Shown: one piece after another, positions 32,861 to 54,557 of the stretch | How the letters are laid out: each line of letters starts with the position of its first letter | How positions within the stretch are numbered: the stretch's first letter is position 1 | Assembly: GCA_965112635.1 (NCBI GenBank) | Contig: OZ218778.1 | Location: forward strand, 1,856,001-1,920,000 | Source of the DNA: an uncultured bacterium | Lineage (GTDB): Bacteria; Oederibacteriota; Oederibacteriia; Oederibacteriales; Oederibacteriaceae | Length of the DNA stretch: 64,000 nt | Direction of reading: 5' to 3' | Program-made: the position numbers and the translations under genes | Notes under the pieces: model-generated | The model's database searches: none | The model's input: only the letters and a program-made list of their open reading frames with translations | Told to the model about the DNA's origin: nothing

Positions 32861-32939
32861 AACCGGCTTAAAATATTTCGTTGGTTTTGATGCAGAGGGC
32901 AAAAGCGTTTAGTGGCTAGTTCCAAGCAGGAGGCATTCT

Positions 32940-34952
32940 ACGCAGTCGGAAACCGTCTGGGCGCGAGCTTGCAGGATCTCATTGGGTTTAGTCTTATTAT
33001 TATGCCCGCTTTTCTTTTGGCTTCAATGCGAAGACGCTTTTAACCTTCCCAAGCAGACCCTGTTGTATCTATTGCTGTTGCTCTCTTTGATCTTCTGGTG
33101 GACTAAATCCGTGGAGTCTCGATTATTCTGGTATCCCCGGCATCTTGTACAGATCGTCCTGCTGGGCTGGCTGGCCTGCGGGATTTTGTCTGTTTTAGTG
33201 AACGGCTCCTCCGTCCTTGGCTGGGCCGCGTGGATCGAATGGCTGGCGCTCGTTGTTCTTTTTATTCTGGTCTTTGGCAGCATCGAGAACGACAGTCATC
33301 TCAATATGTATTTTTCCCTGGCTTTAATTGCCTCAGGGTTGTATGGAGTTTATGGTTTTTTGCAATTTTTCGGAATAGACGTGATCCATTGGTCTTCCCT
33401 GGGCGCAGGCAGGATCTATTCGACCCTTGGGAATCCTGACCAATTAGCGGGCCAAATCGCTTTGGTTCTGCCCCTTGTCGCGATCTTTTTTGTTTTAGGC
33501 ATCAAGCGTCTTTGGACCCTTCCCCTTTTTATGGTCCTGATTTGCGTCCTGTTCTTTACTCAATCCAAATCGGGACTTTTAGCCTCCTTTATCTCTTTCC
33601 TCCTCCTGGTCGTTGGAGTTCTGGTGTTCATGGGGCGGGCGGTTCTTCGGGAGCATCGGATCCAGGTGGTCACCTTGGTGGTAGTTTTTTTTGCCATAGC
33701 TTTTGCCAGCTTCATGGTTTCTCCTGGCAAAACTTCTCCCTCTTTGCCAACTTCCTTGTTCGATCTTAAACAAAGCTCTGCGTCGATCCGTATTTTTATC
33801 TGGAAAGGGGCGGTCCGGTTGATCGCAGAGTCCCCCCTTATAGGTCGTGGATTGGGGAGTTTTCAGGCGCTTAACCCCAGAGAGCAGGCGCAGGTCTGGC
33901 AGAGCGGAGGTTATGAAAGAACGGGGATCGATGTCCACGATGAGGCCTATGCGCATAATGATTATCTTCAGATGGCTGCTGAAGGGGGCCTGCTAACCCT
34001 GGTATTTTTCCTCGCATTTTTTATACTTATTTTCTCTAACGGGTTCAGCTATTTAAAAAAAGAAACCTTGCGCAACCGCCAGGGGGTCGTGTTGGCCTTA
34101 ATGGCAGGATTGGCAGGGTTCCTTACTTTTGCGTTCTTTAATTTTCCGCTTAAGATGCCTTCTGTGGCGGCCACGGCGTTTGCTTGGGGCGCGATCTTGT
34201 GCCGTTATGACGGTATTTTCGCTTCCGGCCGGGTCGTTGGCCTTGCCAAAGGAATTTTGGTCCATCCTTCCTTGAAAAAAGCGCTTGAGTCTTTGGGGGC
34301 CGTGGTATTGCTTGCGCTGATGGTCTTTGTTTTCCAGGGATTTTTGGGCGGAGTTTTCTTTAAGTCGGGATTGCGGGCCATTGAAGCCCATAGGTCCCAA
34401 GATGCTTTGCCGTATTTGGATAGAGCCCTCAATTGTAATCCCTATAATATATCTTGCCTGTTCTATGACGCTTTAGCCTGGGAGGAGAGCGGTAACTGGC
34501 AGGAGGCCGTAAAACAATATAAGGCGACCTTGGCCCTTTATCCTTATTCCATGGGCGCTTGCTATAATCTAGCCAATCTGGAAAAAAGAGCAGGACGATA
34601 TCAAGAAGCCGAGGAGTATTATTTAAGAGCCCTGGCTATCAAGCCGAACTATACCGACGCTTTGAACAATTTAGGGGCACTTTACTACCTTTGGGGGTCG
34701 AGCTTGAGGGACCCCTCCCTTAAATTGCAGGCCCAGCTTTATTACCAAAAAGCGGAGTTGCAATACGCCAAGGCCTTGCAGTACAGACCGGATTTTGTGG
34801 AAGCGCATTTTAATTTGGGCGTTATTTACCTTGCGCTGGATGAAAAGGCGGGAGCAGAAAAAGAGTTGAAGCGTGTTCTGGAACTCGACCCGAATTATGA
34901 CATGGCCAAGACCATTCTGAACAAGCTCAAGAAGAAGAAATCGAAGAAATAA
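32940..34952 (+). CDS. O-antigen ligase/Wzy_C family membrane protein with C-terminal TPRs (start ACG 32940 or TTG 32982)
   Basis: Multiple TMs, RIYSTLGNPD, R..IWKGA, GRGLGSF, AHNDYLQ; TPR YNLAN, NNLG, FNLG. Confidence 0.88.
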   Translation, partial: TQSETVWARACRISLGLVLLLCPLFFWLQCEDAFNLPKQTLLYLLLLLSLIFWWTKSVESRLFWYPRHLVQIVLLGWLACGILSVLVNGSSVLGWAAWIEWLALVVLFILVFGSIENDSHLNMYFSLALIASGLYGVYGFLQFFGIDVIHWSSLGAGRIYSTLGNPDQLAGQIALVLPLVAIFFVLGIKRLWTLPLFMVLICVLFFTQSKSGLLASFISFLLLVVGVLVFMGRAVLREHRIQVVTLVVVFFAIAFASFMVSPGKTSPSLPTSLFDLKQSSASIRIFIWKGAVRLIAESPLIGRGLGSFQALNPREQAQVWQSGGYERTGIDVHDEAYAHNDYLQMAAEGGLLTLVFFLAFFILIFSNGFSYLKKETLRNRQGVVLALMAGLAGFLTFAFFNFPLKMPSVAATAFAWGAILCRYDGIFASGRVVGLAKGILVHPSLKKALESLGAVVLLALMVFVFQGFLGGVFFKSGLRAIEAHRSQDALPYLDRALNCNPYNISCLFYDALAWEESGNWQEAVKQYKATLALYPYSMGACYNLANLEKRAGRYQEAEEYYLRALAIKPNYTDALNNLGALYYLWGSSLRDPSLKLQAQLYYQKAELQYAKALQYRPDFVEAHFNLGVIYLALDEKAGAEKELKRVLELDPNYDMAKTILNKLKKKKSKK

Positions 34953-39589: not shown

Positions 39590-41315
39590 TCACTGGTCGA
39601 CCATTTCCGTGACTTCGAGGACTTCCGACAAGGTGGTTACGCCGCTCAAAATCTTTTGGACACCGTCTTCGAACATCGTGACCATGCCGTTTTTGATGGA
39701 TTCCTCTTTGATCTTGGAAGCCGTCTCTTTTTCCACCACCAGTTTCCTGATACCTTCGTTCATCTCCAGCAATTCCGAAATGACGGTCCGGCCGCGGAAT
39801 CCAGTATTGAAGCAGTTGCGGCATCCCGGAGCATAAAAGATCTTGTGAGGGGTATGGCCAGTCACTAAAAAGGCTTTTTTGTCATCCTCGGTGGGGACCG
39901 TCTCTTTTTTGCAACGCAAACACAATGTCCTGACCAGACGTTGGCTGATGACCGCGCGCAGGGAGCTGGCGATCAGGTAAGGAGGAACTCCCATTTCCAC
40001 CAGTCGCACCACGGCCGATGGGGCGTCGTTGGTGTGAATGGTGGAGAAAACCAGGTGGCCGGTCAAAGAGGCCCGAATGGCGATCTCCGCGGTTTCCAGG
40101 TCCCTGATCTCGCCGACCAAAATGATATCCGGGTCCTGGCGAAGGATGGACCTCAAGGCGTAAGTGAAGTTGAGCCCGATTTCGCTGTGCATCTGTATCT
40201 GCGTAACGCCTTCGATCTCGTATTCCACGGGATCCTCCACGGTCGTGATGTTCTTAGTGCCCGTGTTGAGGGCCTGCAGGGCGCTATAGAGGGTCGTGGT
40301 CTTGCCGCTGCCCGTAGGGCCGCTCATCAGGATGATGCCATAGGTCTTGCGGATGATCCGCTTCAGGGCGTTCAACATATGAGGATTAAAACCGATATTA
40401 TCCAAACCCACGACCAAAACCCCTTTATCCAAGATACGCAGGACGACTTTTTCCCCGTTGATGGTCGGTGTGACGGCCACCCGGAAGTCTATTTCGCGGT
40501 TCTCCACTTTGATATGAAAACTGCCGTCCTGGGGCATGCGGCGTTCCATGATATCGAGCTTGGACATGACCTTGATCCTCGAGACAACGCTCGGCGCCAA
40601 GGCCAGCGGCAAGGTCTGCGCGGGCTGCAGGACCCCGTCCACTCGATAGAACACCTTTAAAAATGTTTTGGTCGGGATGATATGGATGTCGCTGGCCCGT
40701 CGTAAAAAGGCTTCCAAAAGGATCAGGTTAACCGACTTGACCACCGTGCTTTTTTCGTTCTCTTCCTGGACCGAGGCGGAAGGCACGGCGAGGTTGTCTA
40801 TCTCGATCCCCAGCCTTTTGGTCAGCGTCACGCCTTTGTCCACCGCCGTGTTCAACATATGCTGGACGATGCTGACCTTGTAATGGTCTTGATATTCCAT
40901 GAGTTTTTTCAGGATCTCACCGCGGGAGCCCATGGCCGCTTCAACCGGCCCCTGCAGGATGGCCTGGAGACGGTCCACCGTGTCCATATCCATGGGGTTT
41001 TCCATGGCTGACTATGGTGGTATTGTTCTTTTTCTCTATGGGGATCAACACCTTGCTGGAGGCCATATCCTGGGGGACCATGACCACGAGCTCCGGTTCC
41101 GGGGACAGGTTCTCCACGTCCAGGAAGGTGATCCCCATCGTGGATGCCCTTAATTTAAGCAGCTGCAACTCCTCCAGAAGTCCCAGATGGAGCAAAGCTT
41201 CACCAAAGGGAACTTTTTGTTCTTCCTCGTAATGGTGGACTTCCTCGAGTTGCTGGGAGGTCAGGATTTTCCTGTGGATTATCTCGTTTTGCAGGGCCAG
41301 GTCCGCGGGTTTCAA
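39590..41315 (-). pseudogene. GspE/PilB-family secretion ATPase with a frameshift near 41009 (pseudogene or assembly error)
   Basis: N-part 41315-41010 (MshEN-like/T2SSE_N, SD AAGGAG) and C-part 41005-39590 (GPTGSGKTT, RQDPD..GEIRD, GHLVFSTIHTN, CxxC). Removing one base gives I-V-A-M-E-N-P. Confidence 0.8.
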
Positions 41316-41390: not shown

Positions 41391-41472
41391 AAAGCATCGC
41401 CAATCCCTGCGGATTTGCGATGTAACAGGCTGCTAAATGACCCTCTATTAGGGTTTTTCAGCAGCCTGTTAG
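41391..41472. repeat. Structured dispersed repeat, copy 1 (two hairpins; IS-like inverted ends)
   Basis: CATCGC..GCGATG and TAACAGGCTGCT..AGCAGCCTGTTA; similar to 57941-58021. Confidence 0.75.
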
Positions 41473-42473
41473 AAATCAACGGTCAAAGAAAAGCGATGGG
41501 CCTCGCCTAAACTGGCATAAGGCACAAAGGCGTAATCAAAATGATAATACATCAAACCCAGTAAAAGGGAATAGCCAAAACCCGTCGTGAACATGAAAGG
41601 CAGGGAGGTCTGCTCGATCAAGCCGAGCCTGACTGCCAGGTCCTGCGCGCCCCAACGGGAGTTGTATTCCAATCCCAGATGGATCCCCAAATCCTGGCCA
41701 ATGAAATCATAGGAGGTTTCAGCGGAGGCCAGAATATTGCGGGGTTGTTTTGTTTCTTCCTGCTGGCCGCCGATGTTTTCCATGAGTTCTCCCAAGGCGA
41801 ACTTTTTAGCGATCCCTATCCTCAACAGCAAAGGCAGGGAATATCCGCCGAGCTCGGACCCGAGATTCTGCAGGGTCACGCCCAAGGAAGTTGCTTCGGC
41901 AAAAGGCCGGATGATGCCTCCCACATCAAAAGCGAAGCCGCTAAATCCCGCTCCCACAAAATCTTCGTGCAGCAGTTTAGCCGTGATGCCAGCGTGGAAG
42001 ATCTTGGAAAAGGTCGTGCCATAACTTAATTCGCCGAACAAGGCTGAGAAATTGAGGCTGTCCGCGCTGGGCACGAACATGCCCGGCAAAGGGAAGGACG
42101 GGTCCGTGGGCGTCATTTCATCGGCTTTGGAAACAGGGGAGGACCCCAGACGATTAACGCAAATGCTGAGGCCGCTATGGTTGGAAAGGGGCAGGGCATA
42201 GGCCGCGCTGTCAAAACTGGTGCCCAGAAACCAGTTGATATGGGTGAAAGAAAGTTCCTGGAAGGACAGGTCGCCGAGGCCGGCCGGATTCCAATAGGTG
42301 GACAAGGTGCCGCTGGCCACGGCGCAATAGGCGTCCCCCAGACTGGACGGCCGGGAACCGGTGGCTATCAAAAACTCTTCGCCAGCCACTGTGCCTGCCG
42401 CGAATGAATTCAGGGGATGCGTCAGAATAGAAAAAAGGATAAGGAATGCGATGGCTTGAGATTTTTGTGTCGT
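41469..42473 (-). CDS. PorV/PorQ-family outer-membrane beta-barrel (probable ACG start)
   Basis: GSRPSSLGDAY..YWNPAGL; DYAFVP..LGEAHRFSLTVDF; signal peptide is complete only if started at ACG 42473. Confidence 0.82.
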   Translation of the reverse strand, partial: TTQKSQAIAFLILFSILTHPLNSFAAGTVAGEEFLIATGSRPSSLGDAYCAVASGTLSTYWNPAGLGDLSFQELSFTHINWFLGTSFDSAAYALPLSNHSGLSICVNRLGSSPVSKADEMTPTDPSFPLPGMFVPSADSLNFSALFGELSYGTTFSKIFHAGITAKLLHEDFVGAGFSGFAFDVGGIIRPFAEATSLGVTLQNLGSELGGYSLPLLLRIGIAKKFALGELMENIGGQQEETKQPRNILASAETSYDFIGQDLGIHLGLEYNSRWGAQDLAVRLGLIEQTSLPFMFTTGFGYSLLLGLMYYHFDYAFVPYASLGEAHRFSLTVDF

Positions 42474-42586
42474 AGGGCTAACCTCCTAAAATATCGGGTC
42501 ACTATCGGCAGAGAACCCAGGTATGGCTAGAGAATAATATTATACTACTGGTAAGAGAAGACCTGACCCAGGTTCACCATCATTCT

Positions 42587-43588
42587 TTAGAAGCTCGCTC
42601 CCAGGGATATTCTTTGGGCATCACCCAGCTGGTCCATAGGCACAAAAGCGTAATCCAGGGCATATGCGCTGCTGCCGATTTCCAGGGCAAGCCCCACCCC
42701 GCAGCTCAGCAGCAGGTAGCTGCTGGTGGACTTGGCTATACCGCCGCGCAAGGCCAGGATGGTGCTGCCCATCTTAGGGGCCCATTCCAGGCCCAAATGA
42801 AACCCATAGTCCTGGCTGTTCACCAGGTCGGTCAGGTCCAGGCTGGCCAGAATATCTTTGGCCGCCGTCTTATTCTCCGGGGCTAGGGCCAGCAGCTCCT
42901 CAATATCCGTATAGCTCATCCTTTTGGCTATTCCGGCCCTGGCCATGAGGGGAAACGCAAACCCGTCCAATCCCGTGCTCATATTCTGCACAACCAGACC
43001 GGCTATATCCGTATCCGATAGTCTGACCTGCGCTCCCAGATCTCCTGCAAACCCGGTTGCGCTGTCGTCCAGCAGGTTTTCCTGGATACATTTGACATTG
43101 GCGCCGACATTGAGCATGGGCAGCAGGCCCCAGCCAAACCCTATTCCGCCCATGATAGACCCTACACTGACCGTCTGGTTTGCAGGAGAGTATTGGCCGG
43201 ACAAGGGGTTATCAGGGCTAGGCAATGTTTCATTGGTGACCGTGATGTCCGGGATACCCAGACGGCTTACAAACAGGCTTAACCCACTCTTTTTGCCTAT
43301 GTTGACGGCATAAGCCACAGTATCTAGGGAGATATTCTGCATCCACATCAGGTGGGTCAGGGAGATATCCTGGTATTGGAGTCTAGCCAGGCCAGCCGGG
43401 TTCCAAAAAGGGGCGAGAGCGCCGGTGACCACGGCTGTGTAGGCCTCAGCCATACCGCTGGGACGGGAACCGACCCCCAGCAACAGCTCATCGCCCGCGG
43501 TCTCTCCGGCCCCAAAGCAGTGGCTCACCAAACACAGGGAACACAGGCAGATAAGAGTGATTATCTTATCAATACGATAGTGCCGCGT
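42587..43588 (-). CDS. PorV/PorQ-family outer-membrane beta-barrel (probable ACG start)
   Basis: GSRPSGMAEAY..FWNPAGL; DYAFVP..LGDAQRISLGASF; signal peptide extends upstream of TTG 43531 to ACG 43588. Confidence 0.82.
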   Translation of the reverse strand, partial: TRHYRIDKIITLICLCSLCLVSHCFGAGETAGDELLLGVGSRPSGMAEAYTAVVTGALAPFWNPAGLARLQYQDISLTHLMWMQNISLDTVAYAVNIGKKSGLSLFVSRLGIPDITVTNETLPSPDNPLSGQYSPANQTVSVGSIMGGIGFGWGLLPMLNVGANVKCIQENLLDDSATGFAGDLGAQVRLSDTDIAGLVVQNMSTGLDGFAFPLMARAGIAKRMSYTDIEELLALAPENKTAAKDILASLDLTDLVNSQDYGFHLGLEWAPKMGSTILALRGGIAKSTSSYLLLSCGVGLALEIGSSAYALDYAFVPMDQLGDAQRISLGASF

Positions 43589-45792
43589 GATGTCTGGCCT
43601 CCTCCTGAGACTAGGTAAAAATACACGCCTGGAGCGACTGCCTGACCGTTGTCATTGGTACCGTCCCAGGCGGCGTAGGTGGTGCTGGTGGCTATGCTTT
43701 TGACCAGCAGGGCTGACATGGTCCGTATCTCAATGGTCGAGCCAGCCGGGATATTGGCGAATTTCAGCTCATGGTTCAGGGCTGTTTTGACCCTAAAAGG
43801 ATTGGGATAGACCACCAGGCTGCCGATGCTCACCAGAGCCTTGTTGCTGGTCAGGGGGGAGTAGGGGGTTATCTGGCTGAGGATATCGTTGTAACTCATG
43901 CTAAAAGTGTTTGAAATGAACACCCCGGTTGGGTCATTGCTGTTGACCTTGGCTACAAGATTTTTGCTGACCGTGCTGTTGGGATTGACGTTGGCGATGG
44001 TCCAGCTATACAGGCCCGGCCCAAGCACGCTATATCCGCTGTCAGCGGAAACAAAGGTCATGGTGTTGGGCAGGGTGTCCCAGATAAGGACATTTTGGGC
44101 GGGACCGCCCCTGTTCTGACAGGAAAGGGTCCAGGTCACCTGGTCACCCTGGTTTGCTTTGGGAACATTGGAGGATTTGGCCAGGGTAAAGCTGGCCGGA
44201 AGAGGAGTTGGAGTATTGGTTGGAGTATAGGTGGAGGTAAAGGTATATGTGTTGGTAAAGGTCGGGCCCGCCGTGGACTCACCGGAATATTTGGTCAGGA
44301 AGCCCTGATTATCTAGGCCTTTGACCGTGTAGTAGTAAAAGGTACTTGTACAGGCATTAGTGGCGGTGGAGTCGGTATAAGTAGTGCCACCCACTAAAGA
44401 ACCGTTGATCTGTGCATAGCCAGTTCCCTCGGTCGTACTACGGTAAACATTGTAGCCTGAGATGCCGAAGGTGGAGATGGGGGGAGCAGACCAGGTGAGA
44501 GATACAGTAGAAGGACAAGTAATGGTGGCAACCAGACCAGAGGGAGGAACCAAGGTGCCCATGGCATTATAGAAGTTGATGCGGCCGTAGCCCAGGTACT
44601 GATTCCAGCCATTAGCATCATAGGCATGATCGGCGGCATCGACCTTATCCGCGGTTTTGGTGATGCGGGTGGAGACTTCATCATAGGACACGCCGTTGGA
44701 CATTAGGACAGCGGCCAGGGCACAAACATAGGGACACGACATGGATGTGCCGCCCCAGTTTGCGTATGCGGAAGGTCCTCCGATTTCAGTGGTCAAATCG
44801 CCTCCCGGGGCAGCGCATATGACATAAGAGCTATAGGTGGAATAGGTTGCCCATTCATCATGGCTTCCCGAGGCGGCTATAGCGAAAGCTATGCCATCTG
44901 AGGCAGGATAAATGAGTTCATAGGTTCCGCTATCCCCTGACGCGGCCATTGCAATATGATGGTCGGTGGAATAGGCATTGCTTATGGCTGTATCAACGCC
45001 GGAAGCGCTCACAAAACCCCAGCTGCAATTAAAGACCTGCGCGCCGTGCTGGGAGGCCCAGTCGATTCCCGCGATAGCGTTGGCCGCTGTCGCGTCCGTC
45101 CAATTGGTCGTGATTTTTACAGGCATGATCAGGCAATTCCAAGCCATGCCCGCTATACCCGTACTATTATTAACTTCTGCTCCCAGTAGTCCTGAGATCT
45201 CAGTGCCATGACCATGGATATCCGTAGTATCAGAACTATTGGAGATCACATTCCAACCCGGGACAATTTTATCCATCAGGTCCACGTGACTGGAATTTAT
45301 TCCGGAATCAATCACAGCAACCACGGTGGAGGTTAACCCTTTGGCCCAGGGCATCATGGCGGGAGTGTTCCAAGCTTTGTCTGTTTGGGTGATAGGAATC
45401 GGCCACAAGACTCCGCTCTGGTAATAGGTATCGTTGGGAAGGGAGTAGGGGGTATAGGCCGGATGGGCGTAATAATTAGGATAGGCGTTTTTGATCTTAA
45501 TATGTTTTTTCGCCTTCCCAGCATAGTCCAGAACATTTTTACCATGGGGTATTTTTAGGTGATAGATATCCAATCTGCCCAGTTTTTTTATAACTTCACA
45601 GCCTAATTCTTTGGCAATGGCACGCGCTTCTGATTCGGGGACTTTTCCTTTTTCAAATTCAATTATTATCTCCCCTTCCACGTAATCAGGTTTTTCTCCG
45701 GCATAAAGGGGGTGTAATAAAAAGGGGATTATCAAGAAAACAGCCAAAAAAATATACGATATTATTATTCCCAATAGTATGTATTTTTTCAT
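43561..45792 (-). CDS. S8 subtilase (thermitase-like) with FN3, Thr linker, DUF11-like and T9SS-CTD-like domains
   Basis: Prodomain YVEGEIII; triad VIDSG, HGHGT, GTSMS; VYPNPF..WDGTNDNG..PGVYFY..GTIVLIR. Confidence 0.88.
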   Translation of the reverse strand: MKKYILLGIIISYIFLAVFLIIPFLLHPLYAGEKPDYVEGEIIIEFEKGKVPESEARAIAKELGCEVIKKLGRLDIYHLKIPHGKNVLDYAGKAKKHIKIKNAYPNYYAHPAYTPYSLPNDTYYQSGVLWPIPITQTDKAWNTPAMMPWAKGLTSTVVAVIDSGINSSHVDLMDKIVPGWNVISNSSDTTDIHGHGTEISGLLGAEVNNSTGIAGMAWNCLIMPVKITTNWTDATAANAIAGIDWASQHGAQVFNCSWGFVSASGVDTAISNAYSTDHHIAMAASGDSGTYELIYPASDGIAFAIAASGSHDEWATYSTYSSYVICAAPGGDLTTEIGGPSAYANWGGTSMSCPYVCALAAVLMSNGVSYDEVSTRITKTADKVDAADHAYDANGWNQYLGYGRINFYNAMGTLVPPSGLVATITCPSTVSLTWSAPPISTFGISGYNVYRSTTEGTGYAQINGSLVGGTTYTDSTATNACTSTFYYYTVKGLDNQGFLTKYSGESTAGPTFTNTYTFTSTYTPTNTPTPLPASFTLAKSSNVPKANQGDQVTWTLSCQNRGGPAQNVLIWDTLPNTMTFVSADSGYSVLGPGLYSWTIANVNPNSTVSKNLVAKVNSNDPTGVFISNTFSMSYNDILSQITPYSPLTSNKALVSIGSLVVYPNPFRVKTALNHELKFANIPAGSTIEIRTMSALLVKSIATSTTYAAWDGTNDNGQAVAPGVYFYLVSGGGQTSRGTIVLIR

Positions 45793-45893
45793 TGGCAATC
45801 CTTTGGAATAGGGAAATTAGAAGATTATCTACGTGTTTCTTCAATTATATGGCAAAAAACGGTTGTATTGGTCTTTGCAAATCCTGGGTATTT

Positions 45894-48800
45894 CTATTTA
45901 ATTATAGAAATTTTTAACGGTTTCTTTTGAGTTTGACCGCTGACCTGGGAATCGGCTTCTACAATTCCCACATAAAGACCGGCCGCAGTATTATTGACAT
46001 CCCAACCCAGGGTGGCAATGCCAGGCCCGGCTGCGGGCAAGCTGAGGGTGTTCACCAGCTCTCCCACCACATCATAAATTCTCACGGTCAGGCTGGATTG
46101 GTCCTGCAAAGCGACCTTGAACCATACCTTGTGGTCTGGGGTGGAGAGGTACGGGTTGGGGTAGACCGAAGCGTCCATAAACCCGCTTAAATTGGAGCTT
46201 AACACGGTCACACTTTGCACCAGCACATCGTGCTGGTGGTTGTAGGTCTGATCTATTTTGATCAAATACTCTCCGCTTTGCACATAATTGCCCAAGGCCG
46301 TGGTGCCGTCCCAGGTCAGGCGGGCTTGGTTCAAGGAGCCTAGCCCATCTGCCATTAACTGACCTGTGGAGGAAAAGATGTTTATCCCGATCGTGGTTGT
46401 CCCTGTGGGTTGATTGCTTATCTGCAGTAAATTACTGGTCAACTTCATGCTTCCCAATTGTCCCTGGACGAAATAGCTCTGGTAAAGCTGTTTGACCAAC
46501 TCTCCGCTGGTGGTGTAGATACTGACGGTCAAAAGGTCTCCTGACTTGAGCACGGTCAGGGGCATGACGACCGTATTGCCTTGCAGGCCGGGGATATCGG
46601 CTTTAAGCACATATTGCCCGCTGTCCACAAGGTAGCCCAGGTCGCTTTTGCCGTCCCAGGGGACATGGTAGATGATGCCAGCGCTTTTGATCTCGATATC
46701 AAAGAGGCCGGAGTTGGGGTCAAAGATGGTAGAGCCGCTGCCTGAGGAAAGCTGGATACCGCTAAACCCACCCAAGACAAGGACATTACTGAAGGTTTTG
46801 ACCACTTCACCGGCTTCGTCGTAGACCTTGAGCTCCAGGTTGGTCATCACCGGGGTATTGGTAGCGGTCACGGTGGCGGTATGGGTCTGGGTTTGGGTTT
46901 TGGACGGAGTCCAGGTCAGGGAAGAAGTCAAGGTCACTGAAGAGGTCACGGTAACAGTGGAGGTCAGAGTGATGGTGGCTGTATTTGTCATTGTTGAAGT
47001 AGGCAGAGGTGTATAGGTGGTAGTGGTCGTGGCTGACTCAGTGAAAGTGTTGGTATTGGTTGAGGTGGGTAAGGGGGTAGGTGTAGTTGTAGGCGTCCCT
47101 GTTTCAGTGGCTGTGTAAGTAAAGGTGAAGGAGTATAAAGTCGTAACCGTGGCCGTAGGGGTCGCTGTATTGGTAGAGGTGCTAGTTAAAGTTATCGTAG
47201 CTGTAACCGTGATGGTCGCTGTTGATGTTGGTGTATTGGTAGCAGTACTAGTTGGCGAAATGGTATGGGTTGGTGTAGCCGTACCCGTGTTTGTGCTGGT
47301 GTAGGTAGAGGTGGCGGTGCTGGTGTTGGTATTGCTGACGCAGGGAGTCACGTTTTCCACGTACACATCGCCGCAGTAGGGCCTTCCCAGCTCCTCGCCA
47401 AGGCCGGCTCCCATGACCAGGGAATTGGTGCCATTGCCGGTCAGGTCGCCTATAAGCACGTTGCCTCCTCCTACTTCTTCCCCGCCGGTGCCAAGGGAAA
47501 CTCCGTAATAACGCATGGTATAGAACGCAGGGTTTGCTATATCCCTTATTTGGCCTTTGCCGGCGGTCCATGGTCCGGTGGTCACCCACACCACGCCATT
47601 TTCCCAAATGTTATTTGGTTTATTAGATAAGGCGCCGCTTCCGGCGTCGCCAGCTCCTATGGCCAGACTCGGCACCGGAGTACAGCTAAAACAAAGTTGG
47701 CCGATGGCCATATTGTCCCCAAAATCAGTAGCATAAGCTCCAAATGCGCCATCGCCGTCTAAGCGGATGTTGAAATTGTTTACAAGATTCAAGTCTACAT
47801 CATTGCCATTACCTAAAGGGAAGTTAGTGGGGTTGTCATTGGAATAGACAATATAGACTGAGCCATTTCCATTCCTTCCTTGGCTGTTTTCTCCCGCCGC
47901 ACCCATGGCCAAATCCAGATTGCCATTTAAAAATCCCAGGGCTATCCCATCGCCAAGGTCTCCTGGTGCCGCGGTATAGGGCATTTCCTCTGAGGCATTG
48001 GCGCTTTGGGCCCCATCAAAACGCACGTTACAGTTATTAATATTATTCATGTCCACCATGACCCCCGGTCCGCCACCTATGGGTCCGTAGATCACATAGA
48101 CTGCACCATTGTTTACCTTGCCGTTCGTGGAGGTGCCGGGTGCGCTCATGATGAGATCAGGATGGCCGTCTGTATTACCTCCAGCGCCCCCTCCCACGTC
48201 AGCTATGGCTACCTGCTGGCCCATGCCAACCTCAGCCGCAGCGCCGACGTAGAGGTGGTCATAGTTATTGACATTATTCAGATCCAGGATTGCGGCTGGA
48301 CCCGCGGGCAGAGGGCCGTCTATCGTGAACACTGACCCGGAAATGAATCTGCCGGCAAAATTGTTATAGAAAATATCTCCGATGGCCAGGTCATTGATGT
48401 TGTCGCCGTTGATGTCCCCTATGGCGAATGAGGCGGCTCCGGCGTAATTATTGACGATCTCCACGTTATAGTTGTTAGGATTGGCGAAGCTCACCACTGC
48501 CCCAGGGCCGCCCGCAAACGGTCCGTATTTTACCCATACCGCCCAGCCGCCCCCCATAACCAGGTCGTTCACATTGTCATTGTTCAGATCGCCGATGGCT
48601 AAGGCAAACCCGAGGTTGGCCCCCCCGCCGGGGCCGTCGTAACGGATATCAAAATTATTGAATATATTGAGGTCGGGCTGGTTGGCCATGGTGAGAGGGA
48701 AATTGACCAGCCCGCCATAGATGATATAGACCGAGCCGCTGCCACCGCCGTTGTAGCTGGCATTGCCATCCCCTATGACCAGGTCAGGGATGCCGTCTCC

Positions 48801-49550
48801 GTTGAGGTCGCCAATGGCCATGCCTCCCTGTGTCCCTTCCTCACCAAAGCTCAAAGTCCAATCGGCTTGCGCACCGACGAACTGCTCGTTGTAGTTGGCT
48901 GGAACAGCCAGATCAACATCCGGATCAATGACCGCCTCACCCTTGGAGCCTACAGAGACCTTTAATTGCAGGTCGATGATGCCGTCCCCTTTTTGCTCGT
49001 AGGCCAGCAACCGGTGGTCCATTTTGGCCACATCAGACCAGCTGAAGTACCCAACGGCTTGTTTATAGCCTCCCCGCACAGGGAACGTCAGAGAGGCTCC
49101 CTTCATGACAGGCATGACATAGCGGCTTAGACCGGGATAGTCCTTGGCCGGCCGTTCCAATTCTTCGTGGGCGCGAAAGTCCAGGGCCTCTTTTTTCTCC
49201 GGCAGGGCGTACTCTTTGCCCTCATAAACAACGCGGTCCGTGTCGATCTGATAGTAGAGGTGGAGCGTGGTTGTCTTGTCTTTTTGAGTGGGATTTTTGA
49301 CCCGGATAGTTTGTTTTAACGACCGTTTTTGGGTCGCCGGCGATGCTTTGCCCAGGTCGTAGGTCACTTTGACCCTAAGCGCAGGATCATCACAGACAGC
49401 ACGGAAATCTTTAAATCCCTGTTTCAGGTCCTCTCGTAAACCGTTACTTTCGAACCCTGCCCCGGAAACTAGTTGGCTCATGCCGCCTACTAGGAGGAGG
49501 GTGCCTATGGTCAGGACTATCGTGAAAAAAGTTGTCGACGATTTATGCAA
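45894..49550 (-). CDS. FG-GAP (integrin-alpha-like propeller) surface protein with Thr-rich stalk and triple FlgD-Ig/CTD-like C-terminus
   Basis: Repeated GDLNGDGIPDLVIG-like motifs with G.VY; T-x stalk; WDG..SG.Y modules; VYPNPY..GLYVG..KISIIK. Confidence 0.85.
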   Translation of the reverse strand: MHKSSTTFFTIVLTIGTLLLVGGMSQLVSGAGFESNGLREDLKQGFKDFRAVCDDPALRVKVTYDLGKASPATQKRSLKQTIRVKNPTQKDKTTTLHLYYQIDTDRVVYEGKEYALPEKKEALDFRAHEELERPAKDYPGLSRYVMPVMKGASLTFPVRGGYKQAVGYFSWSDVAKMDHRLLAYEQKGDGIIDLQLKVSVGSKGEAVIDPDVDLAVPANYNEQFVGAQADWTLSFGEEGTQGGMAIGDLNGDGIPDLVIGDGNASYNGGGSGSVYIIYGGLVNFPLTMANQPDLNIFNNFDIRYDGPGGGANLGFALAIGDLNNDNVNDLVMGGGWAVWVKYGPFAGGPGAVVSFANPNNYNVEIVNNYAGAASFAIGDINGDNINDLAIGDIFYNNFAGRFISGSVFTIDGPLPAGPAAILDLNNVNNYDHLYVGAAAEVGMGQQVAIADVGGGAGGNTDGHPDLIMSAPGTSTNGKVNNGAVYVIYGPIGGGPGVMVDMNNINNCNVRFDGAQSANASEEMPYTAAPGDLGDGIALGFLNGNLDLAMGAAGENSQGRNGNGSVYIVYSNDNPTNFPLGNGNDVDLNLVNNFNIRLDGDGAFGAYATDFGDNMAIGQLCFSCTPVPSLAIGAGDAGSGALSNKPNNIWENGVVWVTTGPWTAGKGQIRDIANPAFYTMRYYGVSLGTGGEEVGGGNVLIGDLTGNGTNSLVMGAGLGEELGRPYCGDVYVENVTPCVSNTNTSTATSTYTSTNTGTATPTHTISPTSTATNTPTSTATITVTATITLTSTSTNTATPTATVTTLYSFTFTYTATETGTPTTTPTPLPTSTNTNTFTESATTTTTYTPLPTSTMTNTATITLTSTVTVTSSVTLTSSLTWTPSKTQTQTHTATVTATNTPVMTNLELKVYDEAGEVVKTFSNVLVLGGFSGIQLSSGSGSTIFDPNSGLFDIEIKSAGIIYHVPWDGKSDLGYLVDSGQYVLKADIPGLQGNTVVMPLTVLKSGDLLTVSIYTTSGELVKQLYQSYFVQGQLGSMKLTSNLLQISNQPTGTTTIGINIFSSTGQLMADGLGSLNQARLTWDGTTALGNYVQSGEYLIKIDQTYNHQHDVLVQSVTVLSSNLSGFMDASVYPNPYLSTPDHKVWFKVALQDQSSLTVRIYDVVGELVNTLSLPAAGPGIATLGWDVNNTAAGLYVGIVEADSQVSGQTQKKPLKISIIK

Positions 49551-49615: not shown

Positions 49616-52600
49616 TTATCTTATAATGATCACTTTGGTTATTGTTCTGTAGTTCGCAGCAGGGGTGTCCGCCTCCACGGCTGCCAGATACAAACCAGCG
49701 GACATCTTCCCCACATTCCAAGGGATGGCCAGCGTCCCGGACCCCGCAGCGGTGAGGGTCATGATCAAGTTGCCTGCCACATTGTAAATATTGATCCTGA
49801 TGCTGGCTGCCTGATTGATATCCACCTTGAAATAAATGGTCTGCGACCCCATCTCCCGATAGGGATTGGGATACGCTTTGGCGTCAAACCCGGGGTTGGA
49901 GGAGGAGACCAGCACCGTGATGCTCTTGGAATAGGTCACGATCCTGCCATTGTAAACCTGGTCGGCCTTGAGGATGTATTCGCCGTTCTGCACCAGGTTC
50001 CCCAAGCTGTTAGTGCCGTCCCAAAGGATGCGGCCGGGGGCCAGAGTCCCGTTGCTGTCGGAGAGATAAAGGCCGTTATCCCCCAACGCGCCCACTCCAA
50101 CCGTCGTGTTCTGTCCGGGGCCGGTCAGCAATAAGTTATTGGTCAAGGATATGCCTTCCAGCTGGCCCGAAGTGCTATATCCCTGGTAGATCTCCTTCAC
50201 CAGCTCTCCGGAAGTCGTGTAAATGTCCACTTTTAGATGGTTGCCCAAGCTGGTCACTATCACGCTGTTCGTAAAGGTAGTGGCTTTGCCGAACTGCGTC
50301 ACTTGGGATTTCAGGATATAGTCTCCGGGCTGCACCATGGCTCCCAGATCGTTGGTCCCGTCCCAGGGGATTTGCCATTGGCCTTTTTTGGTGGTCAGGA
50401 GGATCTCCAGCGGCACTCCGGAATCCTCCATCAGGGAGCCCGACCCGCCCAGCGTAATGGTGAGGTCGCTCAAATCGCCGAAGATCGGAACCCATCCAAG
50501 GGTCTTGACCACCTCGCCGTTGGTCGCGTAGATCACCAGGTCCACATTGAGCACAGGCGGCGTTATCGTTGGCGTGCAGGAGCTGGTCAGGGTCTTGCTC
50601 GGGGTGACCGTATTGGTCCAGGTCAAAGTCTGGGTGGGCGAAAAGGGAGGAGTGGAGGTGTTGCTGGGCGTAGAAGTGCAGCTGGGCGTGGCAGTATTGC
50701 TGGCGGTCCCGGTATTGGTGAAGGTATAGGAAAAGGTCTTGGTCAAAGTGACGGTATTGGTCAAAGAAGAGGTAATGGTCAAAGAGGGGGTCTGGGTGCT
50801 GGAAGGGGTGTTGGTGATTGAGTAAGTGGGTGTGTAGGTGGTCGTGAGAGTGATGGTCTGGGTATTGCTTTGCGTTATCGTGGCCGAGCCTGTAGGGCTG
50901 GCGGTCAAGGTTGCTGTGACGGTGGACGTGTTGATGAAGGTGAAAGTCGCCGAAGCTGAGGGGCTGACGGTCAAGGTTGCCGTGGGGGTGGGAGTGTTGG
51001 TGGAGGTGTAAGTCGCCGAAGCTGAGGGACTGACGGTCAAAGTTGCTGTGGTCGTAAATGTATTGGTGGCCGTATAGGTTCCGGAGGCGGTAGGGCTGGC
51101 GGTAACCGTGTAGGTATTGGTGGACGTGAAGAGGTTCGTGTAGGTTGCCGTGAGGGATGGGCTGGAGGTCAGGGTAGCTGAACTGGTGGCTGTGTTAGTG
51201 GCCGTGTTGGTGCTGGTGGCAGACGGGCTGACGGTCATCGTGGTCGTGCTGGTGCCTGTAATGGTGGCCGTGCTGGTGTCGGTGGCAGAGGGGCTGACGG
51301 TCATCGTGGCCGTGCTGGTGGCCGTGTTGGTGGCCGTGCGGGTACTGGTGGCAGAGGGGCTGACGGTCATCGTGGCCGTGGCGGTGGCTGTAATGGTGGC
51401 CGTGCTGGTGCTGGTGGCAGAGGGGCTGACGGTCATCGTGGCCGTGGCGGTGGCCGAGTTGGTAGAGGTGCGTGTGCTGGAGGCTGTCGGGCTGACCGTG
51501 GCTGTTGCGCTGGACGTGGAAGTTGAAGTGATGGTGTTGGTAATGGTGGAAGTGCAGGTGCTGCTGCCGGTCGGACTAGCCGTGGCGGTGGTCGTAATCG
51601 TGGGTGTGCATGTTGAAGTGCTGGTAGATGTGGCCGTATCGGTCGCGGTTGAGGTGCTGGTGTTTGTCGGGGCGCAATAAAGAGCCACTTGCGCGTCATT
51701 GGATGTAGTAGCCACTAAACCCGTGCCCTGGAGAGTACCGGTATTGTCGAGAAGGCCGGGACAGGCGGTCGTGGTCACCATAGCGGCAAAACCAAAAGGC
51801 GGAACAGAGGGCAGGTAGTATTTCACCACCACTTCGCAACTATCCACCGCCGAAGCGTCGGCTGGGCCGCTGACCGTGTTGTAGTAGCTGACGCGCAGGT
51901 TGTTCAGGTCAGCCCAGGTCCAGTTCGTATCCGCGGTGGCATCATAATAGCCGTCATCGGTGTTTCCATCAAAAGTTTCGCGCATAATATCAGCGGGAGC
52001 TCCGAGAAAGCCGTTGTTGGTCCCATCCATGGAATAGTTGAAATACAAGGGGTTGACTAATCCGTCGCCACCGTTAACGCCCTGTATTGTGCTGTGGAAC
52101 ATAACTCCGGCGATCACATATTGGTTCTGGTTCACCACGCCGGAGGGGCCGATTTGGAACCATCCCGTGTTGCCTGGAGTGAGGGTCGCAAAATTGCCGT
52201 CAGGGGCCCCTATGGTATTACCGGGGTTGGTCCATCCTGGAGCGTTAATGACAGAGGAAATATACTGGTCAGCGTAGTTGAAGGTCACCGAACCTGAGAG
52301 CGTGAATGTCCAGGAGACCAGGTTGGTCACGGGGTTATAGGTTCCCCCGCCTGTCGCTGAAACAAAGGCCATGCCCGCCGGCACGGTGTCATAGACCGTG
52401 ACCGTGCTGGCATCTTCGTCAAAGGAACCCATGGTGAAGGTGTAATTGACCGTACCGCCGGTAGCGGAAACGGTCACATCAGAGGCTTTGCTCAGGTCAA
52501 TGTCAGAGCCTGGAAAGAAGAAATACTCCCTGTATAAATTCATATCACCGCAGTTATTATTAATAAGCCCCCATGCGCTTGGTCCGTTCCCCAGGTAGGG

Positions 52601-53179
52601 CACATAACTATAGGGAACATTAGGCGGAGCAGGCATTATATAATACATCCACTGTCCTATGCCTGGCGTATCGTCAATAGGTGTGCCCCAGGTTGAATCA
52701 TCAAAACCCGGCATCATCCAATTGGCAGGCGGAACCGCCAGCTGACCGGCGCAGCCGCCGGGTGGATTTGTGCAACCACAACCTCCGGGAACATACAAAA
52801 ATTTTACGTTGGCGTCAGGATTGCTATAAATGACCACTGTGGGGGCGTCTGAATAATGGACAGTCAAGCGAAAAGTCACGGTCTGCGGACCGGAAGTATT
52901 GGGCGGATTGTCAACAGCAATGAGGTTTGTTTGGTTGGGAAGGAAGTCGTGCAAGTCAAGAGTACCGTCCGCGGTGGAATAACTAGTGATTTGGTCAAAG
53001 TTCCAACCAGTTGTCCCGCCATGAATTCCGTTAATGTAAAAATCTGCGTGGTCGTCTCCGGCTATTTCCAGGTCAGCTGAAACAATGTAGGCAATTGTTT
53101 GGCGGGGAACAAACAGTGATAGCAAACATAGAAAAATAATTTTCTTAAAAAATCTTTCTAGTACCTTTTGTTTAAGCAT
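49616..53179 (-). CDS. Surface protein: jelly-roll/lectin-like domain, DUF11-like, 22-aa Thr repeats, triple FlgD-Ig/CTD-like C-terminus
   Basis: Signal; GDDHADFYING, W...FDDSTW; VYDTVPAGMAFVSATGGG; AYPNPY..AGLYLA..KVIIIR. Confidence 0.82.
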   Translation of the reverse strand: MLKQKVLERFFKKIIFLCLLSLFVPRQTIAYIVSADLEIAGDDHADFYINGIHGGTTGWNFDQITSYSTADGTLDLHDFLPNQTNLIAVDNPPNTSGPQTVTFRLTVHYSDAPTVVIYSNPDANVKFLYVPGGCGCTNPPGGCAGQLAVPPANWMMPGFDDSTWGTPIDDTPGIGQWMYYIMPAPPNVPYSYVPYLGNGPSAWGLINNNCGDMNLYREYFFFPGSDIDLSKASDVTVSATGGTVNYTFTMGSFDEDASTVTVYDTVPAGMAFVSATGGGTYNPVTNLVSWTFTLSGSVTFNYADQYISSVINAPGWTNPGNTIGAPDGNFATLTPGNTGWFQIGPSGVVNQNQYVIAGVMFHSTIQGVNGGDGLVNPLYFNYSMDGTNNGFLGAPADIMRETFDGNTDDGYYDATADTNWTWADLNNLRVSYYNTVSGPADASAVDSCEVVVKYYLPSVPPFGFAAMVTTTACPGLLDNTGTLQGTGLVATTSNDAQVALYCAPTNTSTSTATDTATSTSTSTCTPTITTTATASPTGSSTCTSTITNTITSTSTSSATATVSPTASSTRTSTNSATATATMTVSPSATSTSTATITATATATMTVSPSATSTRTATNTATSTATMTVSPSATDTSTATITGTSTTTMTVSPSATSTNTATNTATSSATLTSSPSLTATYTNLFTSTNTYTVTASPTASGTYTATNTFTTTATLTVSPSASATYTSTNTPTPTATLTVSPSASATFTFINTSTVTATLTASPTGSATITQSNTQTITLTTTYTPTYSITNTPSSTQTPSLTITSSLTNTVTLTKTFSYTFTNTGTASNTATPSCTSTPSNTSTPPFSPTQTLTWTNTVTPSKTLTSSCTPTITPPVLNVDLVIYATNGEVVKTLGWVPIFGDLSDLTITLGGSGSLMEDSGVPLEILLTTKKGQWQIPWDGTNDLGAMVQPGDYILKSQVTQFGKATTFTNSVIVTSLGNHLKVDIYTTSGELVKEIYQGYSTSGQLEGISLTNNLLLTGPGQNTTVGVGALGDNGLYLSDSNGTLAPGRILWDGTNSLGNLVQNGEYILKADQVYNGRIVTYSKSITVLVSSSNPGFDAKAYPNPYREMGSQTIYFKVDINQAASIRINIYNVAGNLIMTLTAAGSGTLAIPWNVGKMSAGLYLAAVEADTPAANYRTITKVIIIR
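50895..51494 (-). repeat. Intragenic 66-bp (22-aa) tandem repeat, nine periods
   Basis: The Ser-Pro codons (GGGCT/GGGA on the + strand) recur every 66 bp from 50895 to 51489. Confidence 0.9.
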
Positions 53180-53369: not shown

Positions 53370-54557
53370 TTAATGCCTAAAATGCTGTTCTTTCAAGCTG
53401 GCCCAGCCAACAATCTCGTCGCCGTATTTTTTGCGTAGTTGGTCCATGGCGGCTAAAAGTTTGTTTTTTGGGGCGGATTTTTCCTGGAACAGGTCCATCT
53501 GCCGGAGTTGCTGACTGGGATCCAGGCCGTGGACGGCGACCCCAACCAGCCTTAAAAGCCTATTATTTAATCCTTGCCTGTTATAAATTTCCAAGGCCTT
53601 TTTATAAAAGATCTGGGGATCTGAAGTGGGGCCGGCTAATTTAGCCTGACGAGTGATGGTTTTAAAGTCGGGAAAGCGCAGGGTCAAGGTCAGGGAGCCG
53701 GCGGCCAAGCCTGCTTCCCGGACCCTGCGGGCCACCTGCTCAGAAAGGAGCAGGAAAACTTTTTTGAGGAAATCCGGGTCTCGGGTATCTTTTTCAAAGG
53801 TCAGGCAGTGGCTGATGGACTGGGGGCCGGACTCGCCCCTTTTCTGCCACCAGCCCCCTTCCGCATAACCCTGGGCTGTCCTAATGAGGGAACGGCTGAC
53901 CACTCCAAAATCTTTTTGCAACCGGGGGAGGGGAGTTTTGGCCAGGTCTCCGATGGTCATGATGCCCAGGCGGTTCAAATGGTCTCTCATCTTGGGGCCG
54001 ACCCCTATCAGGTTGTCCACTGGAAGGGGAGCAAAAGCCTTCCTTGCCTCTTGCTCGGTGGCGAACATGGTCAGTCCGCGGGGTTTTTTGAACCCCGAGG
54101 CCATCTTGGCTATCAAGGGGTTTGGTCCCAGGCCCAAGGAACAGGTGAGGTGAAAATTCTGTTCCACAGCCTCCTGTATTTTTTGGGCATGCTCCAGGGG
54201 CGGCCCGAAAATATGGCTGCAGCCGGTCAGGTCCAGATACGCTTCGTCAATGGAGGCCTGGTCCACGACCGGGCTGAAGCGGTTCAAAAATTCAAAGATC
54301 TCACGGGAGACGCGGCTATAGACACCATGGCGGCCTGGCAGAAAGATGGCGTGAGGGCAGAGTTGTTTTGCTTGGGCCGTGGGCATGCCTGAGTGGATGC
54401 CAAAAGGCCTGGCTTCATAGGAGGCCGCCGCCACGACAGAACGGGCTCCGGTTCCCACGATGACGGCCTTGCCTTTGAGCCTGGGATTGTCCCGTTGCTC
54501 CACCGAAGCGAAAAACGCGTCCATATCAAGGCATGCGCAGACTTTATCCATAACCAC
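53370..54557 (-). CDS. dinB: DNA polymerase IV
   Basis: LDMDAFFASVEQ, ASYEAR.FG, ASIDEAYLD, AKMAS..KP.G, RLVGV; clamp motif QMDLF. Confidence 0.96.
   Translation of the reverse strand: MVMDKVCACLDMDAFFASVEQRDNPRLKGKAVIVGTGARSVVAAASYEARPFGIHSGMPTAQAKQLCPHAIFLPGRHGVYSRVSREIFEFLNRFSPVVDQASIDEAYLDLTGCSHIFGPPLEHAQKIQEAVEQNFHLTCSLGLGPNPLIAKMASGFKKPRGLTMFATEQEARKAFAPLPVDNLIGVGPKMRDHLNRLGIMTIGDLAKTPLPRLQKDFGVVSRSLIRTAQGYAEGGWWQKRGESGPQSISHCLTFEKDTRDPDFLKKVFLLLSEQVARRVREAGLAAGSLTLTLRFPDFKTITRQAKLAGPTSDPQIFYKKALEIYNRQGLNNRLLRLVGVAVHGLDPSQQLRQMDLFQEKSAPKNKLLAAMDQLRKKYGDEIVGWASLKEQHFRH

Follow-up and report, generated by a model that had tools for sequence, protein, structure and literature searches.

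How does a bacterium begin translation of an exported protein when the reading frame offers no ATG, GTG or TTG (hereafter canonical starts) ahead of the signal peptide? The question is raised by two neighbouring minus-strand genes in a 64,000-nucleotide stretch of an uncultured Oederibacteriota bacterium (the window, bases 1856001-1920000 of a complete single-contig genome of 2.876 Mb and 51% G+C; assembly GCA_965112635.1, contig OZ218778.1). Judged by profile matches and uninterrupted frames, both are intact genes for outer-membrane barrels of the PorV/PorQ family. Each encodes a Sec signal peptide in frame and upstream of its first canonical start, ending in SFA/AG in gene 2 and in CFG/AG in gene 1 (both read by inspection; the slash marks the predicted cleavage site), and the proteins carry this feature only with a near-cognate start in use. 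The reading that we favour, at slightly better than an even chance, is that near-cognate initiation is driven by strong Shine-Dalgarno (SD) sequences, at ACG in gene 2 and at ATC or ACG in gene 1, with a low output that would depend on initiation factor 3 (IF3). The elements of the two start regions, in window coordinates, are:

42587..43591, minus strand: gene 1, PorV/PorQ-family barrel (NF033709), 334 codons from ATC 43591 (333 from ACG 43588)
43598..43606, minus strand: gene-1 SD AGGAGGAGG, within the last codons (S-G-G-G) of the upstream peptidase gene
43586..43591, minus strand: SD-positioned start candidates of gene 1, ATC 43591-43589 (6 nt from the SD) and ACG 43588-43586 (9 nt)
43559..43573, minus strand: further in-frame gene-1 codons found by inspection, ATT 43573, ATA 43564 and ATC 43561
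41469..42473, minus strand: gene 2, PorV/PorQ-family outer-membrane barrel (NF033709), 334 codons from ACG
42488-42486, minus strand: in-frame TAG ahead of gene 2, overlapping the SD
42481..42487, minus strand: gene-2 SD AGGAGGT, identified from its sequence and the 16S 3' end ...GGATCACCTCCTTTCT
42471..42473, minus strand: proposed initiation codon ACG of gene 2, 7 nt (TAGCCCT) after AGGAGGT
42399..42473, minus strand: signal-peptide part of gene 2, 25 codons, by inspection with a K-containing n-region, the core AIAFLILFSIL and SFA/AG
42450..42452, minus strand: ATC, the first start of gene 2 listed in NCBI table 11, 28 nt after the SD, own SD absent
42387..42389, minus strand: GTG, the earliest canonical start of gene 2, from which database entry P0002 is translated; it lies 3' of the predicted cleavage site

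An initial annotation, made from the letters of the window, had described the SDs, the spacers, the ACG codons, the TAG and the leaders of both genes, and every base that it named is present. It went on to propose that both genes start at ACG, a claim that stands for gene 2, where the SD has no near-cognate codon within reach other than ACG 42473. Neither the SD nor the ACG has an ATG, GTG or TTG nearby in any frame, and translation from the ACG reads (M)TQKSQAIAFLILFSILTHPLNSFA/AGTVAGEE. The stretch from the upstream stop to the first canonical start holds seven near-cognate codons; by our own arithmetic the chance that one of them would carry such an SD is only about 3%, and the ACG is for this reason more than a chance occurrence. 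The region around it folds less than shuffled controls (z +0.9). Starting instead at ATC 42452 would give an 18-residue signal that lacks a charged n-region. Read-through of the TAG was considered and rejected, the next upstream stop being TAA 42542-42540 with zero canonical starts in between.

For gene 1 the proposal of an ACG start holds less well. The spacer from the SD to the ACG, CCAGACATC, is 9 nt long, and its last three bases are themselves an in-frame ATC, which lies only 6 nt from the SD. Of the canonical starts in this genome, 1,218 follow an SD of at least 5 nt, 144 of them with a spacing of 6 nt versus 69 with 9 nt. Because its spacing is better, because ATC belongs to a stronger class of E. 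coli reporter starts than ACG, and because starts of the ATT/ATC/ATA class are supported by profiles elsewhere in the genome, ATC 43591 is the more likely start of gene 1, and the adjacent ACG 43588 may be a bystander. Two independent ACG starts are thus not required. From the ACG the frame reads (M)RHYRIDKIITLICLCSLCLVSHCFG/AGETAG, and the first canonical start, TTG 43531, falls within the hydrophobic core. Two of the further in-frame codons, ATA 43564 and ATC 43561, overlap the stop of the upstream peptidase gene (TAA 43563-43561) as ATAA and TAATC, and are possible re-initiation starts.

That the two proteins are PorV/PorQ-family barrels was borne out by profile search. Against NF033709 (cut-off 90 bits) gene 1 scores 92.8 and gene 2 scores 101.6, with alignments over profile positions 4-326 and 8-326. 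In gene 1 the match to the profile opens at residue 32 and in gene 2 at residue 35; ahead of it is a leader of about 25 residues with n-, h- and c-region features. The narrower equivalog models gave scores far below their cut-offs, at 16.1 and 16.9 bits for PorV (NF033710, cut-off 250) and at 33.3 and 42 bits for PorQ (NF033711, cut-off 220); the best match to the PorV model anywhere in the genome is 98 bits. The cleavage site of gene 2 aligns with AQA/AGTVAGEEF of its closest paralog, which starts at ATG and shares 54% identity (P0003/P0022).

The genome contains 35 members of the NF033709 family, whose start regions we sorted by our own reading of their listings. In 30 of them an ATG, GTG or TTG precedes the hydrophobic leader. 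Three lack any canonical start, namely genes 1 and 2 plus the copy at genome 2631946, which has TAAGGAG followed by ATT. One is ambiguous between AAGGAG-ATC and a bare TTG, and in one (genome ~2783040-2783075, minus strand) the AGGAGGAGG-ATG is offset by one base from the signal-peptide frame, at an A-run, which is either a one-base indel (real or from assembly) or a slippage site. An SD of at least 6 nt precedes all three copies that lack a canonical start, compared with 4 of the 30 canonical ones (hypergeometric ~0.006, our own arithmetic); the strongest SDs of the family belong to the copies without a canonical start. In 19 related genomes the best homologues have a canonical start ahead of the leader in every case (16 ATG, 3 GTG). 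The leaders in paralogs and relatives mark the leader as a family feature, and the database forms that begin at GTG or TTG (P0002, P0023 and P0024) are thus truncated. P0002 is stored as 306 amino acids (aa) from GTG, with three sources and two contigs, and P0024 as 313 aa from GTG 43528, on a 6,442-nt contig. The suggestion that the nearest canonical starts delete the signal peptides is accordingly upheld by 30 of 35 paralogs and 19 of 19 homologues in relatives.

In the initiation machinery, IF3 and the initiator tRNA, to which the initial annotation had pointed, both appear orthodox. The 16S tail, CCTCCT, is complementary to both SDs. In the initiator tRNA, with anticodon CAU, the anticodon stem contains three G-C pairs and a C1:A72 mismatch is present. 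A special tRNA that reads ACG was considered and set aside, as the tRNA-Thr(CGU) is a normal elongator. IF3 is full length (193 bits versus a cut-off of 60), and both domains and the linker align with solved IF3 chains. Its linker tyrosine, which we take to be the Y75 of E. coli numbering, appears from the sequence to be kept. A Y75N change of the IF3 linker tyrosine relaxes start selection in E. coli (PMC7145577).

Near-cognate starts behind SDs recur elsewhere in the genome. We tested 34 candidates against family profiles (21, then 13 new ones). Eight show homology upstream of the first canonical start, 10 are fitted by a canonical start, 14 are uninformative and 2 are partial. Together with infC, where the comparison is with solved chains, the supported cases are:

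genome 1330288: heptose-7-phosphate kinase, ATT start; the profile reaches upstream of the first canonical start
genome 2067149: FliI, ATC start, by profile; the first canonical start comes 70 codons later
genome 1171326: PdxB, ATA start; the ATA is at profile position 1
genome 2797510: LspA, ATT start; the profile reaches upstream of the first canonical start
genome 683273: DedA, ATA start; the profile reaches upstream of the first canonical start
genome 1492444: PTS IIC, ATT start; the profile reaches upstream of the first canonical start
genome 2631946: PorV paralog, ATT after TAAGGAG; the profile reaches upstream of the first canonical start
genome 1669592: LarE, ACG 6 nt after TAAGGAG, or ATT two codons on; the first ATG lies 11 residues into the profile match
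genome 1796772: infC, ATT after AAGGGAG; residue 3 aligns with residue 2 of solved IF3 chains

Apart from genes 1 and 2, then, nine or more genes, about 0.5% of long genes, appear to begin at a near-cognate codon behind an SD, a figure that is a lower bound from a biased search. By our own reading the supported starts lie about 4-8 nt after the SD core. In related genomes LarE has a canonical start at 14 of 15 loci (13 ATG, 1 TTG; 1 unclear). Among the candidates set aside, a canonical start fits the profile of GyrA, a methyltransferase, a ribokinase, a pyruvate kinase, a sulfatase, a GT2 and a SIS protein, and an SD with ACG at genome 420958 lies in a frame with no family match. Many of the profile-supported near-cognate genes are envelope or export genes, N-termini of the kind to which the detection is biased.

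Counts over the whole genome were taken over 1,962 non-overlapping open reading frames (ORFs) of at least 150 codons, which cover 88% of the genome, and over the zone from the upstream stop to the first canonical start of each, 14,627 in-frame codons in all. Within this zone 67 codons (0.46%) follow an SD of at least 7 nt and 226 (1.5%) one of at least 6 nt. The 67 include three ACG codons, those of genes 1 and 2 among them; the 226 include 12 ATT codons and six ACG codons, two of which are again those of genes 1 and 2. We also collected 124 orphan SDs, defined as SDs with no canonical start within reach in any frame. After these, near-cognate codons stand 32 in and 36 out of the long-ORF frame versus 98 in and 242 out for other codons (P = 0.004), and ACG stands 6 in versus 2 out. 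In the genome-wide count of SD plus in-frame ACG, which the initial annotation had put forward as a check, the enrichment of ACG alone is weak once genes 1 and 2 are set aside.

These results suggest how the two genes may be read. The Sec signal peptides would be encoded upstream of the first ATG, GTG or TTG of both genes, and the start would be a near-cognate codon positioned by a strong SD, ACG 42473 in gene 2 and ATC 43591, with ACG 43588 as second choice, in gene 1. The ordinary initiator tRNA (CAU) would pair with this codon with one mismatch, for which a longer stay of the 30S subunit on the extended SD duplex would make up. A low, IF3-sensitive output would be expected, and genes 1 and 2 would be part of a genome-wide near-cognate habit. 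The anatomy of the start regions, the family membership, the missing canonical starts and the parallels elsewhere in the genome are observed; actual initiation by ribosomes at these codons, its efficiency, and selection for a weak start as opposed to mere tolerance of it are inferred. The idea that a weak start dampens translation would follow by analogy from E. coli data (bioRxiv 10.1101/063800). Non-canonical initiation behind a strong SD, as first proposed for this locus, is in our view the best explanation, given the parallels in at least nine other genes.

A number of observations weigh against near-cognate initiation. In E. coli reporters AUA, AUC, AUU and CUG give 1-2% of the output of AUG, and the remaining codons, ACG included, 0.1-1% (bioRxiv 10.1101/063800). 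In this genome an SD of at least 5 nt precedes 10 of 121 ACG codons (8.3%) versus a background of 5.6%, which is not significant, and about 38% of long genes have an SD of at most 4 nt, so an SD is not obligatory here. The gene-1 SD sits in coding sequence, and the spacing in gene 2, 8 nt from the end of GGAGG, is longish and shared by 93 of 1,218 canonical starts. SDs with ACG at ThiL, LptB and a GT2 were ruled out as starts by profile coverage, and a GT2 site at genome 1926963, one of the three ACG codons with an SD of at least 7 nt, has that SD inside the upstream gene and is put down to chance. A third SD with ACG within 11 kb of genes 1 and 2, CAGGAGG followed after 6 nt by ACG 32940 (window 32925-32985, plus strand), in the frame of a 670-codon Wzy_C/TPR membrane protein, is ambiguous, TTG 32982 being equally plausible. 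Among 40 genomes of the same phylum there is no ortholog close enough for codon conservation to be judged (best identity 28-34%). A protein search returned only the genome's own entries above 54% identity, and metagenome scans returned nothing for gene 2 and two distant matches (35-39%) for gene 1.

Several of these points would also fit a recent loss of the start codon (ATG to ACG or ATC), which would make both genes silent young pseudogenes in a redundant family and their SDs leftovers. With 35 paralogs redundancy is high, E. coli initiates poorly at ACG, and the homologues in relatives start at ATG or GTG in 19 of 19 cases; decay nearby might also be seen in the paralog whose SD and ATG are out of frame at an A-run and in a pilB/gspE-like gene 150 nt downstream of gene 2 that is split over two frames, both of which count against a functional start here. 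Yet the two frames are open for 333-334 codons with other lesions absent, and no family members have stronger SDs than the copies that lack canonical starts. Of all mutations able to disable a 1-kb gene, roughly 1-2% would fall on the start codon, so that two start-only hits in neighbours are improbable, and similar starts occur in lspA, fliI, pdxB, infC and other conserved genes that are unlikely to be dead. Since the start codon is such a tiny mutational target, start-only lesions in two intact neighbours and in housekeeping genes are unlikely products of neutral decay or random error, and we judge start loss to be unlikely.

An error in the assembly or the reads, with ATG as the true bases, appears still less probable to us, and only a very small chance is left for it. 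The paralog with the A-run indel and the split pilB-like gene could themselves be assembly errors, and the seven contig pieces that we found for this locus leave 42471-42473 and 43586-43591, the codons at issue, uncovered, which weakens our reading. Those pieces, from runs of 4 studies, nevertheless show 0 differences over 1,275 nt of the 2.3-kb stretch (our own sum), the two codons lying outside. The truncated P0002 and P0024 match letter for letter from other sources, which would be unexpected with an ATG behind the SDs, an indirect point at the protein level. ORFs of at least 150 codons cover 88% of the genome, and a systematic error is unlikely because the near-cognate starts elsewhere comprise four substitution types with no common motif.

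Near-cognate initiation might also take place at other codons than those positioned by the SDs, in gene 2 at ATC 42452 and in gene 1 at ATT 43573 or by re-initiation at ATA 43564 or ATC 43561. The ATT/ATC/ATA class is supported elsewhere in the genome and beats ACG in E. coli, ATAA and TAATC resemble the ATGA and TAATG overlaps of coupled genes, and an amidase of this genome likewise has only a leader without a charged n-region. Set against this, ATC 42452 lies 28 nt past the SD and is without an SD of its own, whereas the supported near-cognate starts elsewhere lie about 4-8 nt after the SD core, and the SD-positioned codons yield better leaders than the other sites, from which leaders of 17-18 residues that lack a charged n-region would result; we regard these sites as improbable. 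C-to-U editing of the mRNA, turning ACG into AUG as in plant organelles, is the least credible of the explanations and seems to us most improbable, the analogy with plastid ACG start codons being its sole support. Editing would leave the ATT, ATC and ATA starts unexplained, and to our knowledge no ACG-to-AUG editing mechanism exists for bacterial start codons. Searches of the genome with the DYW-deaminase and PPR_2 profiles (PF14432 and PF13041) gave no match, a weak result in that the controls matched nowhere either.

Initiation by SD and near-cognate codon, which we continue to favour, has a close relative in the AUU start of E. coli infC and the other rare starts of NCBI table 11, which share a near-cognate codon, the ordinary initiator tRNA, an SD and a low, IF3-sensitive output; the infC of this genome has the same ATT arrangement. 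ACG differs in placing its mismatch at the middle and not the third position of the codon, and no feedback logic of the infC kind is evident for a barrel protein. Table 11 comprises TTG, CTG, ATT, ATC, ATA, ATG and GTG, and does not include ACG. In E. coli, ACG does initiate, and with an N-terminal Met as seen by mass spectrometry, and it is not among the annotated start codons of the 34 well-annotated genomes surveyed (both from bioRxiv 10.1101/063800). The reporters of that study resemble gene 2 in having ACG behind a strong ribosome-binding site and a Met-first product; unlike them, being engineered and yielding 0.1-1% of AUG, the ACG proposed here would be a natural, sole start on the chromosome of an uncultured lineage. 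No title among the literature matches listed describes a natural bacterial gene starting at ACG.

Plant organelles and eukaryotic viruses likewise have ACG where an initiator codon is expected. In plant organelles the C of such an ACG is edited to U with PPR-DYW factors, and no such factors were found here in searches whose controls matched nowhere. Viral ACG starts, such as that of adeno-associated virus VP2, serve as weak starts that set a low stoichiometry; eukaryotic ACG starts differ from the present ones in relying on scanning and Kozak context and not on an SD.

Gene callers and table 11 disallow ACG, and both proteins are consequently stored in public collections shortened and without their signals (P0002, P0023 and P0024); any other gene with such a start will be stored truncated too. 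Near-cognate initiation as such is already known, and a natural bacterial ACG start amid a genome rich in ATT, ATC and ATA starts would be new. We hold tentatively, at somewhat less than an even chance, that ACG is a genuine, unedited start in a free-living bacterium, in gene 2 and perhaps in larE and gene 1. The same tentative claim includes a relaxation throughout the lineage, in which at least about 0.5% of long genes would begin at ATT, ATC, ATA or ACG behind strong SDs, among them lspA, fliI, pdxB and several PorV-like barrels, despite the orthodox initiator tRNA and IF3. If true, it would provide a natural bacterial example for a codon known mainly from engineered E. coli reporters, edited organelles and eukaryotic viruses, and would reveal a lineage that unusually often pairs weak start codons with strong SDs, many of them in envelope and secretion genes. 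A weak start behind a strong SD could be a simple setter of low, IF3-dependent protein levels.

Genes 1 and 2 form the end of a row of genes on the same strand, the other members of which, in window coordinates, include:

45894-49550 and 49616-53179, minus strand: a pair of large genes for proteins of 1218 and 1187 aa, whose C-terminal domains are FlgD_ig / Por_Secre_tail-like
43561..45798, minus strand: cargo-like S8 subtilase that carries DUF11 and ends in a FlgD_ig/CHU_C-like tail; its catalytic motifs are present
41423..41471, minus strand: strong hairpin directly 3' of the gene-2 stop, -36.9 kcal/mol, z -6.3

The hairpin is probably the end of the transcription unit, and a scan for sigma-70-type promoters returned 0 sites. 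The same hairpin is a copy of a small palindromic repeat with 4 further genome copies at 86-93% identity, and diverged copies of the palindrome are present in contigs of run X2. In the two large genes FlgD_ig scores 56.7 and 36.6 bits, above the cut-off of 27, and Por_Secre_tail 25.0 and 25.4 bits, below its cut-off of 27. These adjoining cargo-like genes, together with membership of NF033709, are what the locus has in common with the type IX secretion systems (T9SS) of Bacteroidota and their PorV and PorQ. It departs from them in its equivalog scores (about 16 versus 250 and 33-42 versus 220 bits) and in its 35 paralogs. TIGR04183 reaches 17.9 bits beside the genes versus a cut-off of 23. For SprA the genome has only an open frame of 1851 codons (genome 116673-119915, minus strand) in which five segments match TIGR04189, the best at 104.5 bits and each below the cut-off of 200; by these matches the frame encodes a divergent SprA-like protein.

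The pilB/gspE-like secretion ATPase downstream of gene 2 occupies window 39590-41315 (minus strand) and is seemingly split. An N-terminal ORF of 124 codons (40941-41315, with TTG behind AAAAGGAGA) overlaps a T2SSE ATPase ORF of 471 codons (39590-41005) in another frame, and the two would join at ...TIVS/MENPMD... near 41005. A frameshift or an assembly indel could explain the split, as could a pair of separate genes.

Two tRNA calls by ARAGORN are unusually long or of similar length, a 97-nt tRNA-Lys(UUU) at window 54050-54146 (plus strand; unusually long, anticodon at position 38) and a 96-nt tRNA-Ala(GGC) at genome 1279584-1279679; they may be insertion carriers or false calls. Among the orphan-SD hits we also saw a release-factor-2-like gene (genome ~1368430-1368450, plus strand) that carries the classic programmed +1 frameshift site GGAGGT ... 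CTT TGA C, a known feature.

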